From: Octopus vulgaris
Lineage: Eukaryota
Reading direction: 5' to 3'
Length of the DNA stretch: 64,000 bases
Assembly (NCBI GenBank): GCA_951406725.2
Contig: OX597833.1
Span: 61,070,001 to 61,134,000, forward strand
Both the position numbers and the translations under genes were made by a program. Position 1 is the first letter of the stretch. Every line of letters begins with the position of its first letter. The notes under the pieces are model-generated. The model was not told where the DNA came from and did not search any database. It saw only the letters and a program-made list of their open reading frames with translations. This document shows, in pieces, positions 5,987-34,944 of the stretch.

Positions 5987-6180
5987 ATGATGGTCCTAGT
6001 GTGAAAGCTGTTCCAACAACAAGTGTGAGTCCCCGATCGTCAACACCGAAACGTGGTCCTCCTCCATTGGTTTATTCAAGCCAGTCATCATCATCATCAT
6101 ATCTGACCCCACCCCCTGTAGTGACAATCGCTCCAACTCAAGCTCACCCAACACACCTCCACTCAGAAGCTCATTCTCAG
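5987..6180 (+). CDS. GSE1: GSE1-like exon (DGPSVKAVP...EAHSQ)
   Basis: ttgtag| ... CAG|gtaatg; open, S/P-rich. Confidence 0.8.
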
Positions 6181-7705
6181 GTAATGTCACACTCAACACG
6201 TTCCTGTTTGTCTTTGGCACAACTTCCTACCATACCACATTCTTCTTTATATCTTCCACTTTAGCCTATTTTTCTATGGATTTTTTTCTTTCTTGTTTTA
6301 TTCTAGAATTTGGAACGTACTCACTCCGTACAAAGCTCATCTTCATCGCTCTATGACCCCCTTACTATAAAACAGGAAAGAGACCACCGACCCTTGTCAT
6401 CACAATCTCGAGATGGTGACACAGCAAAAGAATGCATTATCCAGCCATCCCACAGGTTGGTTAAAAAGTTAGGATTGCTTTTTGTCATTTCTCTGGAATT
6501 TAATTTTTTTTCCCTCTTTTACTACTTAATTTGCCCTCAGTTTCCTCATTATTTCACTCGTAATCGAGCGGTTACTGTTTATATCTCGTTCAGAGATTTA
6601 TTATTGTTTTCAGACAGTTTTTCTACATCAGTGACAGTGGTTACTGTGAAAAACATTACATATTGTTTGTAAGGGGACTCCTTCATCGAAGACCGGTGCT
6701 TACCATGCGTTGACAAGAGGCAATTACCTCGAAACTATAGTCCGTATGTAGTACTCGGGTCTTCGATGGAGGATGACCTCCCTTTGCAAACAACACAAGG
6801 ACACTGAGATAGTGTCTAAAGTCCTTCTGGTGACGTTGATCGCCTGGGGCTAAAAGCATCAGTAACCCCCCAACCCCCAACCAGTGGCTAGCCACATTTA
6901 GATGGCTGATACCCCTTACGTTGTCGAGCGGTTACTGTTTATATCTCGTTCAGAGATTTATTATTGTCTTTCATTAAAATAATAACAAAAAAAAAACAAA
7001 AAAAATCCCCCAAATCGACTCAAAATTCCCACTTTTCATCACAAACTGTAATTTTTCCTTTCTATCTTTCAGGACTACATCATCAGCTTTATCATCATCA
7101 TCATCTACACACGGCAGAGATGACCTTCCTCCCAGAGGTTTCCAACCATATAGACCAGAGGAAGAGATTCGGCCTATGTTAACATCCCCTTTTGGTTTGG
7201 ATGCCGCTTACCCATATCACCCAGCACTATTTGCACACCAACCCTACCCTCATCCTGCATTTAGGTATTGCTATATAGTTTCTTTAATAATTTTATATAC
7301 ATCATCATACTATTATATAGCCTCTTCAGTAATTCTACATACATCAAGGCACTGTTATATAGTTTCTTCCGTTTAGAAATTCTACATACATTTGAGGTAC
7401 TGCTATATAACTTCAATAATTATACATACATCAGAGTGTTGCTTTATAGCTTCTGTAGTTCAGTAATTCTACATATATCCTGGTATTGCTATATAATATT
7501 GCTATGACTCATTTACTCTTTACCTTATTTCAGTCATTTGACTGCGGCCATGCTGGAGCACCGCCTTTAGTCGAGCAAATCGACCCTGGGACTTATTCTT
7601 TGTAAGCCCAGTACTTATTCTATCAGTCTCTTTTGCCGAACTGCTAGGTGACGGGGATGTAAACACACCCACATCGGTTGTCAAGCAATGCTAGGGGGAC
7701 AAACA

Positions 7706-13700: not shown

Positions 13701-16700
13701 TATCAGTACACATCAATTCAGTAGTCGATGCCTCTTTCCATATTTACCCTGACCAGAACTTAGTCAGCAAGTTAGACTTGGAGGAAGCGAAGATGAGAGA
13801 ATCACGTCTGAACGGAACATATTGTAGTGATAGCGAAGAAGACGAAGAACTAACTGTTGCCATGGAAATGGAAAGGAAGCAGCAGCTGTGTATCATCACA
13901 ACCAACCCACCTTTGGCACTAGACAAATCACCAAGCAAAATGCGTTACTTAAAGTCTATGGGTTTAACAACTCATTCGCGAAGAAGAGGTAAGCTTGACG
14001 ATGTATTTCACTCAAATATTTCAATTAAATTCTGTTATGTCTGGGGAGAGTCGTTTTCTTTTTGTGCCTTATAATGTAACACACTCACTGGTAAAATTTC
14101 CACTCATTTCTTATTTTTATTTATTTTTTCCTAAAATTTTCGTTGCGTCTTGCAACCTTTTTAATAGTCTTGACTCCAAAAACGAAATATTTCAATTAAA
14201 CATCCATTTAAATATCTGAGATGAATTGTTGTTAATGAGGTGAATTAGCTTTATCTTGTGAGTGGAAATACTTTACTATATTTACATCTTACACTCTGTT
14301 TTCATCAGTTTCATCTCCAATTGTCTCATTTCTGTACATAGCACCATACAGGGCTTGACTGGAGACCTTTATTTTGAAACTAAGACTAGTAATGCTTTTA
14401 ACTTCTTATGCCACTGATGAATGTACATTTAATGTTACATTTTCAGCTTATTTACATTCATCTTCCACTAATTATAATCTCCACTAAACTGATGTCAGCA
14501 CTTGACTTACTTAATTGATTTACTAATACTCGTTATGTGGAGTGCTTTCATATTTGTAGGGTTCCATGTTGGTCCCTTATCGGTTAGGAGCATTTTCATT
14601 TTTCATTCCATAGCACTCATGGTTTCCTCTGTTACTCCATACATAATTTTTATCATTTCTGTTTGTGAAGATTCAAGGATTTTTTATTCTATCATCTGGC
14701 CATGGTCTCTCCTTTGTAATATTGTAATGAATGGCAAGTGAGAGGTGTCGTTCTCTTTTTGAAACACCGTCAGGAACCAAGTGGAAATGGTTGATTAACC
14801 CTTCAGCATTTAAACTGGCCATATCTGGCCAAAATAACCTTCCTGTTTTATACTGAAGCTGGCCAGATTCAGCCTCTCGTACCTACCCGACAATGTTAGT
14901 CCAAACGAATAGTCAGATTACCAAAACCTGGCCATGTCTTTGTGGTTAAAATCTTTTCTAAATATTCTGGCATTTCCTCACTTACCTTAAAAATTTATGG
15001 TCATGGTACCCCTGCAGACTGGCCATGATGCCCTTCCAAGCCAATCATGGAATCCCTGCAGACCACCCATTGATACTCCTGCTGACCAGCATAGTACCAC
15101 TGTGGGCCAGCCTTTATACCCTTGCAGATCAGTCGTGGTATCCCTGTAGATCAGTCGTGGTATCCCTGCAGATCAGTTGTGGTATCCCTGCAGGTCAATC
15201 ATGGTACCCCTGCAGATCAGTCGTGGTACCCCTGCAGATCAGTCGTGGTACCCCTGCAGATCAGTCGTGGTATCTCTGCAGATCAGTCGTGGTATCTCTG
15301 CAGATCAGTCATGGTACCTCTGAAGATCAGCATCAGTCATGGTACCCCTGTAGATCAGTCATGGTACTCCTGTAGATCAGTCATGGTACTCCTGTAGATC
15401 AGTCATGGTACCCCTGCAGGTCAGTCATGGTACCTCTGCAGATCAATCATGGTACCCCTGTGGACTAGCCATGCTACACAAGTGTACCACAGTACAGTGG
15501 CTGAAAACGTATGTTCTATATTTACTAATTGGTTGTTTACAAGTGTTGTTGGTGTTATTCCATAGCACAGTACAGTTCCTACAGACACACTGCTACTGTT
15601 CATTGTCCTAAATAACAACACTATTGTCTGTGACTATTTCAAGTGAGATATATTGGCCACTGGTGGTTTGCGAAAGCTGTTGTATGGTCTGTTCGTCTGT
15701 TCATTACGTTTGAGCGTTTGAGATAATTAAAGAACAAACCCTGCAGAGAGTGTATCATTGAAATGGTGCCAAGATGACTAGAACCAAATATCTATCTCCT
15801 GCCAAACTGCCAAATTTAGGTGTCTGACAGTCTTGCTGACATAAGTACTATGTTGCTGTAGAACTTAATATTAATGAGCAGGTGTAAAATGCATTATTAC
15901 ATTAAAATACCTGTTGACCGAGTGAGTGTGAAAAGGGTAAAGCATATCCTTTTACCTGCTTCAGCCGTTCAGCTATGGCCAACCGGATGGAAGTGGTAAT
16001 TCTTAAGTATGTGTAATATCTAAGAAATAAATTCTTCAGTATATATTCATCCTCATCGTTTAACGTCCGTTTTCCGCGCCAGCATGGGTTGGACGGTTCG
16101 ACCGGGGATCTGGGAAGACAGGAGGCTGCACCAGGCTCCAGTCTGATCTGGCAGTGTTTCTACAGCTGGGATGCCCTTCCTAATGCCAACCGCTCCGCGA
16201 GTGTAGTGGGTGCTTTTTACGTGCCACCGGCACAGGTGCCAGGGGAGTCTGGCAGCAGGCACGATTGGTTGGTGCTTTTAACGTGCCACCGGCACAGAAG
16301 CCAGTCAAGCATCGGCCATATTATTTTCAAATTTTGGCACAAGGTCAACAATTTGGGGGCAAGGGGAAAGTCAATTACATTAATCCCGGTGCTCAACTGG
16401 TCCTTACTTTATTGACCCAAGAAAGATGAAAGTTGATCTTAGCAGAATTCATTCTCAGAACATGGTGGACAAAATGCTAAGAATTTTGTCTGATCTGCTA
16501 ATGTTTCTGCCAGTTTGCTACCTTTCTTCAATATATAATATTTTTAAAAAATTGTTTTCTAGAAATGTCCAACATTTGTCAAAATAGTAGGTTAGGGTTT
16601 CAAACTTCGTAACCAAACAGGTAAATAGTCACAGATTAAGGATAATGTGTTAATCCTTCACTGGTTTCAAATGATGAACTGTTGCCATGGTGGGGACATC

Positions 16701-32438: not shown

Positions 32439-34944
32439 CTGAAAGAAAGAAGGGGACATCTTTGTTAGCTGGACAGCCAGAAGTTGGGGTTTGAACATGG
32501 CATTCAATATAAAGGAAACTGCAACACACAGACAGAACCATACACACCGCAAACTCACGGGTGGGCAGCTGAAGACCCGGGCAACGACGATAAAGGAGGA
32601 CCTCTCTGAACTCTCAGGTCCGCAGGTGGTCGGTCTGTGCAGATGGAACCGCGAATGGCTCACTATCTCTAGTGACCTCGCACAGGAGCATCGAGCATAG
32701 GGGCCGCCATGGTTCGTGATGCTGTCAGGACCAGAGAAGAAACTGGCTCAGCCCACCCTGGGTGAACAACGTCACAAGTACAAGTAAGTACACATACACA
32801 CATTGCAGACATGCACCCACACACACATGCTGTTGAATTATAAATTTGACATGATCATAGGCGCAGGAGTGGCTGTGTGGAAAGTAGCTTGCTAACCAAC
32901 CACATGGTTCCGGGTTCAGTCCCACTACGTGGCACCTTGGACAAGCGTCTTCTACTATAGCCTCGGGCCGACCAAAGCCTTGTGAGTGGACTTGGTAGAT
33001 GGAAACTGAAAGAAGCCCATCATATATATGCATATATATATATATATGTGCGTGTGTGTCTGTGTTTGTCCCCCCCAATATCGCTTGACAACCGATGCTG
33101 GTGTGTTTATGTCCTAGCGGTTCGACAGTCAAATGACTGAAACAAGTAAAAGAGTAAATAGTTTTTAGTTTTGTTATGACCCATTTTCCAAGCTATAGCT
33201 CTCACAGTCACTTCCAAAGCATTTCGTTTCACTGAGCTCTGAAGTATATTTGTGTGTGTGAATGTTTTAAGCACTATTTATTTAAAGGGATTTTTTCCCC
33301 CCAGATGAAAAATGTAGCTTCTGGCTTTCAATGAAACACATGTCAAGTATGTCATAGAGATAAAAATTTTATTCTACAGCTGCTTTTGCATAACCACCTG
33401 ACTGGCCCTCGTGCCAGTGGCATGTAAAAGCACCCACTACACTCTCGGAGTGGTTGGTGTTAGGAAGGGCATCCAGCTGTAGAAACTCTGCCAGATCAGA
33501 CTGGAGTCTGGTGCCGTCATCTGGTTCGCCAGACCTCAGTCAAATCGTCCAACCCATGCTAGCATGGAAAACGGACGTTAAACGATGATGATGATGATAT
33601 ATATGTGAGAAGGGGCATCCAGCCATAGAAAGCATACCAAGGCAAACTTTAGAGCTGGTAAAAGTTTTCCAGCTCATCAAATTCCTGTTAAACCATCCAA
33701 CATATTACAATATAGAAGACAGATATTGAATGATAATTTTCCTGGTGTGTGTGTTTTTGTAAATAAATATGGAGCGAGTTCTTGAAAAGAGATATGTACT
33801 TACTTTGTTCATTTCCATGTAGAGTTGACCGCGATCGTCTTTATAAGAAATATACCGTGTGCATCCAGTGTCCAAATCAAAACTTGGGGCTGCAAGATGA
33901 GAATTAAAGCAACATCACTCTTACAGAACAAACCTAACAACATCAACTGCAACTCACTACACCAATATAGTTAATCTAACACTTCCTTTTCCTCTATTTT
34001 CATGTACCATTTACTTACATCAGCTTCTTTATATTGCACCCAAAAGCCACCTGCTGCAATCACTGACTTCATCCTTATAGTGTCTCATCCTTTTAATCCC
34101 CATCTCCATCTCCAAATGTCTCAGCACCACATCTCTATCTACATTATTTACATTCGACAAATATTTGTCATCTTGTTTGTTGTTAACACAACGTTTCGGC
34201 TGATATACCCTCCAGCCTTCTTCAGGTATCTTGGGGAAATTTCAAACCTGGGTTCTCATTCCTAAGGTATTTTTTGATGTTATTATTATTATTATTGTGG
34301 CATAGTGGTTAAGAGCGCGGGCTACTAACCCCAAGATTCCGAGTTCAATTCCAAGCAGTGACCTGAACACTAACAATAATAATAATAATAATAACATAAA
34401 AAATACCTTAGGAATGAGAACCCAGGTTCGAAATTTCCCCAAGACACCTGAAGAAGGTTGGAGGGTATATCAGCTGAAACGTGTTAACAACAAACAAGAT
34501 GAGGACAAATATCCATCAAACGTAAATAATGTACATAATTCCTCATCTCTTAAATATAGAACTCATCTCTATCTGTTTCTCACTCTCTTTGAAGGTCTAC
34601 AATCTGTAGAAACATGTCACAAATCATCCCAGCCACTCGACGCTGCCAACTATAGCACCCTATCATCCACATTTTCACCATCGCATAAGTGACAGAAACA
34701 ATCAAGACCACCAGATTCAAAATCTTCACCCACACACACACCACTCCACAGTCTAATTTCCGTATAGTTAGATCTTCTGGACACTTTACCATGACAACTA
34801 ATTTTAGCAGTGAAATCTTTTGGTCGTTTCAATGATGCGAAAGATCTTATAATTGATTGATTAATCCTTCACAATGAATTACAATCTTTAAGGAATGATA
34901 ATCATTAGAAAACTGACTTTAGCATCTTCTTTAATCTGATAACT

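Follow-up and report, generated by a model that had tools for sequence, protein, structure and literature searches.

The GSE1 intron and its hammerhead motif

The window, the whole 64-kb stretch of Octopus vulgaris DNA that was analyzed, carries plus-strand exons that match DUF3736, and one of these exons, in the part that aligns, matches the Octopus bimaculoides GSE1 protein P0001 at 100% identity. The features of the locus are listed here with the evidence for each.

6307..6455, + strand: GSE1 coding exon 5' of the insertion (contig junctions, protein match)
6456..7072, + strand: GSE1 intron, GT..AG, 617 nt, with the insertion in sense orientation (contig junctions, protein match)
6564..6923, + strand: full 360-nt unit of a non-coding mobile repeat, family 1, U3:A8 subfamily (direct repeat, genome copies, unit ends)
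~6663..6793, + strand: long imperfect hairpin, a continuation of stem I that closes off the ribozyme (fold stability, inverted repeat)
6704..6748, + strand: type I hammerhead ribozyme motif (sequence anatomy, descriptor scan, covariation)
6734..6741, + strand: self-complementary stem III octamer ACTATAGT (duplex energy; palindrome with three different centres across families)
6924..6968, + strand: 45-nt tail, a second copy of the first 45 nt of the unit (direct repeat with spacing 360, tandem arrays)
7073..7264, + strand: GSE1 coding exon 3' of the insertion, 3' end approximate (contig junctions, protein match)

Position 6455 was joined to 7073 in contigs of runs X8, X1 and X17, which belong to three studies (two guessed to be RNA, one of unknown kind), with 617 nt bounded by GT..AG skipped. 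The sequence of P0001 also reads through the predicted 6455/7073 junction. The spliced contigs and P0001 therefore place the motif in the sense strand of the GSE1 intron 6456-7072, as a preliminary description of this DNA had proposed. The ribozyme lies in sense orientation in this short intron, 286 nt past the donor. A DNA contig from a diverged sample (X16) spans the 5' junction of the insertion, with 12 differences over 6204-6664, while contigs of X15 break at the repeat. Because spliced mRNA was recovered in three runs and the X16 contig carries the junction, the insertion appears to be tolerated and not private to the assembly.

The unit contains an acceptor-like TTTTCAG (ending at 6613, within 6607-6674); a donor-like GTAAGG at 6669 is confined to the U3:A8 subfamily. 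A cryptic 55-nt frameshifting exon at 6614-6668, with AG before it and GTAAGG after it, was considered and rejected, as no such joint was present in four RNA-type contig sets. Elsewhere in the window, at 15000-15460, a GSE1 intron holds a 22-nt minisatellite of ~21 copies.

In the motif itself, a 6-bp stem I is formed by CATGCG (6704-6709) and CGTATG (6743-6748). The core TTGACAA occupies 6710-6716 (U3 = 6710, A8 = 6715, A9 = 6716) and is followed by stem II, GAGG (6717-6720) paired with CCTC (6727-6730) around the hexaloop CAATTA (6721-6726), and by GAAA at 6731-6734. The cleavage triplet GTC lies at 6740-6742, with the predicted cut 3' of C6742 (C17). Every letter of the anatomy given in the preliminary description, from the stems, core and loop to the GAAA, palindrome and GUC, was found in its place. 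The motif has the hallmarks of a type I hammerhead, namely three helices, G5, A6, A9, G12-A14, the A15.1:U16.1 pair, H17, an opening at helix I and a 3:8 base pair, which is U:A in this copy. Stem I is extended by the hairpin at 6663-6793 (-65.2 kcal/mol, z -8.9; 0 of 200 shuffles equally stable), within which lies the inverted repeat 6679-6694/6758-6773.

A strict type I descriptor (stem I of at least 6 bp, stem II of at least 4 bp, Watson-Crick 3:8) had 0 matches in 40 dinucleotide shuffles of the window, and a loose descriptor had 3 matches over 40 such shuffles versus 2 in the real window. The hammerhead motif exceeds chance expectation. No Rfam hammerhead model was matched at gathering score or at E<=10, which is expected with a changed core, yet still a miss. 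Since Rfam finds no hammerhead, the earlier claim that the motif would evade standard searches holds. Self-cleavage after C17 is a prediction from this anatomy.

A 360-nt mobile repeat and its insertion marks

A direct repeat with a spacing of 360 nt flanks the hammerhead, and the element in the window is a single unit plus its tail (6564-6968; 360 + 45 nt). A genome search with 6610-6925, in which 40 of 2272 candidates were scored, produced at least 107 matches with identities reaching 96%, and the window copy is ~95-97% identical to dispersed copies. An exact pattern of the motif with positions 3, 7 and 8 left free had 247 genome matches, and the reversed-pattern control had 0. The motif belongs to this element and is not a feature of GSE1; the preliminary description had missed the dispersed repeat.

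At locus L011 the units recur with a tandem period of 355-356 nt and a GC content of 0.44. When the ends of units were classified at loci L001-L121 (n = 122, de-duplicated), 42 ran into a next unit, 43 stopped at the unit end and 37 stopped after the tail. A TA repeat adjoined 55 of the 80 true unit ends at these loci; the window copy has no adjoining TA repeat. The tail sequence was found at 37 of the 80 3' ends and also inside tandem arrays. The 45-nt direct repeat was considered as a target-site duplication and rejected because it is present in every tandem unit, and this element-internal tail is the sole direct repeat of the window copy. The 5' ends of copies were scattered, with no cluster at the cleavage site (C17+1), and inverted truncated copies were common. 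One 48-nt family fragment ends exactly at C17 (L061:2572-2619 and 6152-6199), a single event that was locally duplicated with its surroundings and that carries no weight as evidence.

The family has the layout of a retrozyme, with one type I hammerhead per unit and both dispersed and head-to-tail tandem copies; the window copy, unlike the family tandems, is a lone unit plus tail. The unit is non-coding and, at 355-360 nt, falls within the ~170-400 nt and GC <50% of retrozymes. Among sequence records that carry the element, none was listed as RNA, and assembled contigs of the runs guessed to be RNA covered the unit patchily or not at all, which counts neither for nor against expression. The accessible parts of the literature, to which all comparisons with published work in this text refer, describe non-LTR retrozymes in similar terms: a non-coding unit of 170-400 nt with GC <45%, found as monomers and tandems in genomes with coexisting Penelope-like elements (PLEs), and a single type I hammerhead with a 6-bp helix I, a 4-bp helix II and a weak palindromic helix III (PMC7229834, Cervera and de la Pena 2020; bioRxiv 10.64898/2026.07.22.740005, Li, Clavereau and Pollet 2026). 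Mussel retrozyme units in the same accounts measure 350-390 nt, similar to the 360 nt in octopus. The octopus family differs from the retrozymes described there in its U3·G8 or U3:A8 core in place of C3:G8, in that a tail of 45 nt and two fixed 3' ends have been mapped, in being known from DNA and in the lone unit of the window copy.

PLE insertions are marked by partial tandems, 5' truncation, inverted copies, a tail of 30-40 bp and (TA)n targets (PMC8557442), and the octopus family shows marks of this type: tandem copies, 5' truncation, inversion, a tail and (TA)n targets. The unit differs from the PLEs of that account in lacking a reverse transcriptase (RT) or GIY-YIG open reading frame (ORF), in its canonical rather than minimal hammerhead geometry and in its tail of ~45 nt rather than 30-40. 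By tblastn, no PLE match that would indicate an RT or GIY-YIG ORF of an autonomous PLE was found in the window, and the units shared no DNA similarity with any of 60 PLE/GIY-YIG loci taken from 17,755 and 6,136 candidates. The genome does contain young PLEs with intact 781-aa ORFs (RT, GIY-YIG) that end at (TA)n. A mobilizing PLE partner is likely.

Several further observations were made during this search. In one young PLE family (L155, L161, L171, L172; for example G000:C6:133345512-133348967), there are many 781-aa ORFs whose GIY-YIG region is 97-100% identical, and a hammerhead-like TTGATAA (U3:A8) core with a CATG palindrome lies near the 3' end, followed by (TA)n; its stem I looks weak. 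Motif pairs 1.4-3.6 kb apart were considered as pseudo-LTR (pLTR) pairs and rejected as local duplications or nested other elements. PLE fragments beside L014/L020, L054, L063/L066, L076, L137 and L145 were likewise rejected as parents, having other 3' ends or the opposite orientation, and such fragments near some copies look like separate insertions. At L014:658 and L020:1071, an unrelated repeat beside a family 1 copy bears a canonical CTGACGA hammerhead with a long stem II and a longer stem III. The window itself holds a second, unrelated minimal type I hammerhead of the PLE type on the minus strand (34190-34230, CTGAAGA core at ~34225). In this second hammerhead A9 is followed by one additional base, stem II has 6 bp and stem III is a tiny palindrome, and the motif is enclosed by an inverted repeat with ~160-nt arms.

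Position 3:8 and the order of core changes

Position 3:8 was compared across three families. Among the 100 family 1 matches listed of 247, 93 were U3·G8, six U3:A8 and one C3:G8; TTGATGA was the core of four and TTGACAA of six of the same 100. Separate patterns gave 17 matches for U3:A8 and 10 for C3:G8, 7 of the latter being family copies. About 90% of family 1 combines U3·G8 with G10.1·U11.1. The sister family (family 2), ~75-80% identical to family 1, had 94 exact matches, 91 of them with A8, and its consensus-type copies are U3:A8. A third family, with 110 matches to a 28-nt end motif, had C3:G8 in 10 of the 11 copies examined. Position 3:8 was pairable in 129 of 131 copies, a set of loci enriched by targeted searches and not a census. 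The window copy, with all core positions intact and Watson-Crick pairs at 3:8 and at G10.1:C11.1, is among the best-formed in family 1.

Family 2 varies in arrangement and core. At L111 (G000:C4:13620759-13624379), ~10 family 2 units of 355 nt with U3:A8 cores lie head to tail, an array that would be a natural substrate for assays of dimer cleavage. Part of the family (L099, L105, L109, L116, L119 and L145) has a CCGAAGA or CCGACGA core, with U4 changed to C, and a C·A mismatch at 10.1:11.1, where family 3 also has C·A. The U3·G8 majority, together with the CCGA cores and C·A mismatches in part of family 2, suggests that spread is possible with a weak ribozyme.

For covariation, 53 of 59 distinct hammerheads were aligned, six having been dropped as truncated or junction copies, one of which has an A3·G8 mismatch. 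In this alignment 93.1% of structure cells were paired, and the covariation score was 0.371, compared with 0.226 after shuffling and no more than 0.129 when partners were slid. Position 3:8 was U:A in 22 copies, C:G in 18, U·G in 12 and unpaired in 1, and the centre pair of the stem III palindrome was A:U in 21, G:C in 21 and C:G in 9, counts that reflect few ancestral events and not 53 independent ones. Stems I and II also change in compensated fashion between families. Ribozyme columns varied less than the rest of the unit (0.015 versus 0.046), a comparison biased by the many loci that were picked by exact ribozyme patterns. Loop II of family 2 is CAAAUA, which we take to be the S. mansoni loop.

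Because the palindrome centre cannot close an intramolecular hairpin, its compensation points to pairing between two hammerheads. The 3:8 covariation and the retention of the palindrome in three families make selection on a dimeric ribozyme likely, and such selection would act at the level of the element. The preliminary description had taken the palindromic stem III as a sign of a dimeric hammerhead, a view strengthened by the compensated changes that keep the palindrome across families, and had made its reading depend on covariation at 3:8 or in the stems of homologous copies, which was found. Its further proposal, that the double change reflects selection for catalysis, survives in part. 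Selection is likely, with 3:8 paired in 52 of 53 copies and the palindrome compensated, whereas the tie to GSE1 is not supported for a motif in a young repeat with dispersed copies ~95-97% identical.

The order of the core changes was examined in a tree from which core, stem II and stem III columns had been removed, with 76 rows thinned from 117 and a few copies present twice. C3:G8 and U3·G8 copies were basal in family 1, and ten U3:A8 copies, including that of the window, grouped in a clade (95/87) that sits within a ladder of U3·G8 copies. AU tests on 69 rows rejected a basal position of the U3:A8 clade (p 0.011) and a single U3:A8 origin for families 1 and 2 (p 1e-72), with groups named after the tree had been seen, a separate A8 copy (L072) left outside the clade and copies treated as non-recombining. 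An ancestral U3:A8 state for family 1, suggested by the sister family, was rejected by the core-masked tree and the AU test. The G10.1:C11.1 pair was present in 14 of 18 U3:A8 copies versus 1 of 61 U3·G8 copies.

C7 and G8 form a CpG, at which G8>A is an easy change; both transition products occur in family 1, and other CpGs change in 0-5 of 73 rows, subfamily-diagnostic sites aside. The nesting of U3:A8 in the U3·G8 group suggests a stepwise path via this CpG and not one double change, and a path from C3:G8 through U3·G8 to U3:A8 is likely in family 1. With U3·G8 in 93 of the 100 matches listed of 247, U3:A8 nested among these and G8>A a CpG transition, the concerted double change of the preliminary description was not borne out. 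The ease of G8>A at this CpG and the far greater amplification of the wobble lineage argue against a strong selective reading.

U3:A8 cores have been published from several natural hammerheads, with reported activity in vitro (Perreault et al. 2011, PMC3088659), in line with the earlier remark that U3:A8 can keep activity, and they share the compensated tertiary pair with the window copy. The octopus family differs from those variants in that the U3·G8 intermediate is its commonest form and the successive steps map onto a tree. About 1,300 U3-A8 motifs are reported in S. mansoni PLEs, and the Cercyon PLEs resemble the octopus element in U3-A8 covariation, a palindromic helix III and predicted dimer activity (PMC4209133). 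In a type III hammerhead, only a G:C swap rescued the 3:8 pair and other core mutants were weak (PMC9901934), so the U3·G8 and U3:A8 ribozymes described here may be slow.

A literature search found neither an amplified U3·G8 intermediate with nested U3:A8, which supplements may hold, nor, judged by title and abstract, a description of this octopus family, nor one of C3U/G8A; subscription papers and supplements may hold such descriptions. Thus, the element is of a known kind and its core a known variant; the amplified U3·G8 intermediate is the point for which no published match was found. We give roughly even chances to the full stepwise record, in which C3:G8 passed to a U3·G8 wobble amplified to ~220 copies and then to U3:A8, a state that two sister families reached on their own and that was followed by repair of stem II, while the palindrome was rewritten in compensated fashion.

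The lone intronic copy and the spread of the element

No other family copy was found in the 64-kb window, and the intronic copy is solitary. In its best fold (ViennaRNA), G5-A6-C7 pairs with GUC and buries the cleavage site. The hammerhead fold with a 2-bp stem III lay 3.6 kcal/mol above the best fold in all five contexts, from 45 nt to the whole intron, and the intramolecular stem III pair probability was 0.0, in models that take no account of tertiary contacts or Mg2+. Pairing with a second copy through the palindrome is predicted to give a duplex of 8 bp and -7.2 kcal/mol. In a natural tandem, the cross-copy stem III pair probability was 0.01, in a geometry that ViennaRNA handles poorly. 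The lone intronic ribozyme is thus predicted to be mostly off.

Very probably, the motif is the hammerhead of a non-LTR retrozyme, a 360-nt non-coding repeat that PLE enzymes likely inserted, and the lone GSE1 copy is likely a tolerated passenger. Under this explanation, tandem copies would be transcribed, and the stem III palindromes of two hammerheads would base-pair, allowing cleavage after C17 and the release of unit-length RNA, possibly as a precursor of circles. A Penelope-type RT and GIY-YIG endonuclease would then insert copies of this RNA at AT-rich sites, which would give rise to the partial tandems, 5' truncations, inversions and 45-nt tail. The U3:A8 pair in the window would have been inherited from the source subfamily, likely by way of C3:G8 and U3·G8. 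Retrozymes have been proposed to derive from PLE pLTRs (bioRxiv 10.64898/2026.07.22.740005). Points against the explanation are the lack of DNA similarity between the units and the 60 PLE loci, the 5' ends that do not cluster at the cleavage site, the low cross-copy stem III pairing in the natural tandem, the U3·G8 majority with the CCGA cores and C·A mismatches of part of family 2, the rescue by a G:C swap only in a type III hammerhead (PMC9901934), the window copy's lack of an adjoining TA repeat, and the report of cleavage in just 1 of 9 retrozyme dimers in the preprint.

The same element could instead carry a largely vestigial ribozyme in family 1, with mobilization in trans via its ends, dispensable cleavage and A8 as a CpG hitchhiker on a successful source copy. 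The U3·G8 and G10.1·U11.1 wobbles of ~90% of family 1 fit such decay, as do the C7-G8 CpG with both transition products seen (against 0-5 of 73 rows at other CpGs outside subfamily-diagnostic sites), the lack of 5' end enrichment at the cut site and the reported weakness of core mutants other than the G:C swap (PMC9901934). However, 129 of 131 copies remain able to pair at 3:8, changes in the palindrome and in stems I and II are compensated between families, the stem II pair moves from G·U to G:C in the U3:A8 clade (14/18 versus 1/61 U3·G8), and families 1 and 2 acquired U3:A8 independently (p-AU 1e-72); we regard a vestigial ribozyme as unlikely, though worth serious consideration. Less probable again is that the unit is a solitary pLTR, left behind when 5' truncation removed the coding part of an autonomous PLE, and not an independently replicating retrozyme. 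A unit plus tail does match the pLTR-plus-tail layout (PMC8557442), a TTGATAA (U3:A8) core lies close to the 3' end of a young autonomous PLE in the octopus genome, and the preprint cited above derives retrozymes from pLTRs, but where copies reach 5' beyond a single unit, what follows is a further unit or part of one in inverted orientation, arrays of the sister family reach ~10 units, and the 60 PLE loci showed no sequence match.

That the hammerhead was co-opted by its host, cutting GSE1 pre-mRNA co-transcriptionally or with family RNA in trans and so tuning GSE1 output, is very improbable. The sense orientation in a short intron, 286 nt from the donor, the intact core with Watson-Crick 3:8 and G10.1:C11.1, and the X16 contig across the 5' junction would all suit a recruited ribozyme. 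Amniote co-opted intronic hammerheads have also been reported (PMC7761336); these too are of type I and lie in the sense strand of a host intron, but they are few and conserved, whereas the octopus copy sits in an intact, young, multi-copy repeat and its stem III is not predicted to form alone. The whole repeat is present, where a host-co-opted motif would stand alone after loss of its element, and its 95-97% identity to dispersed copies gives no sign of special conservation. Cutting of GSE1 pre-mRNA in cis or in trans, as the preliminary description envisaged, is further opposed by the solitary copy with no second one in the window, the GUC buried in the predicted inactive fold and a partner duplex of only 8 bp and -7.2 kcal/mol. 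Contigs of three runs show the intron spliced out, although spliced mRNA is compatible with partial cutting. The intronic location is ordinary, since 42-44% of Xenopus retrozyme copies are intronic (bioRxiv 10.64898/2026.07.22.740005). Regulation of GSE1 by the ribozyme is unsupported; it would have been a rare case of a host-recruited ribozyme, and the evidence points instead to an ordinary intronic insertion of a retrozyme.

In the retrozyme families, C3:G8, U3·G8 and U3:A8 form a natural series on almost the same 360-nt backbone, and true tandem arrays exist, which makes it testable how much ribozyme activity a retrozyme needs to spread. Rfam and CUGANGA descriptors undercount hammerheads in the octopus genome. 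Dimer cleavage by the wobble form would mean that natural hammerheads can work with a core regarded as crippled in mutagenesis studies, and that most copies of such families escape searches restricted to CUGANGA. Should that form fail to cleave, a working ribozyme would not be required for retrozymes to spread. Both outcomes test the need for self-cleavage in retrozyme mobility.
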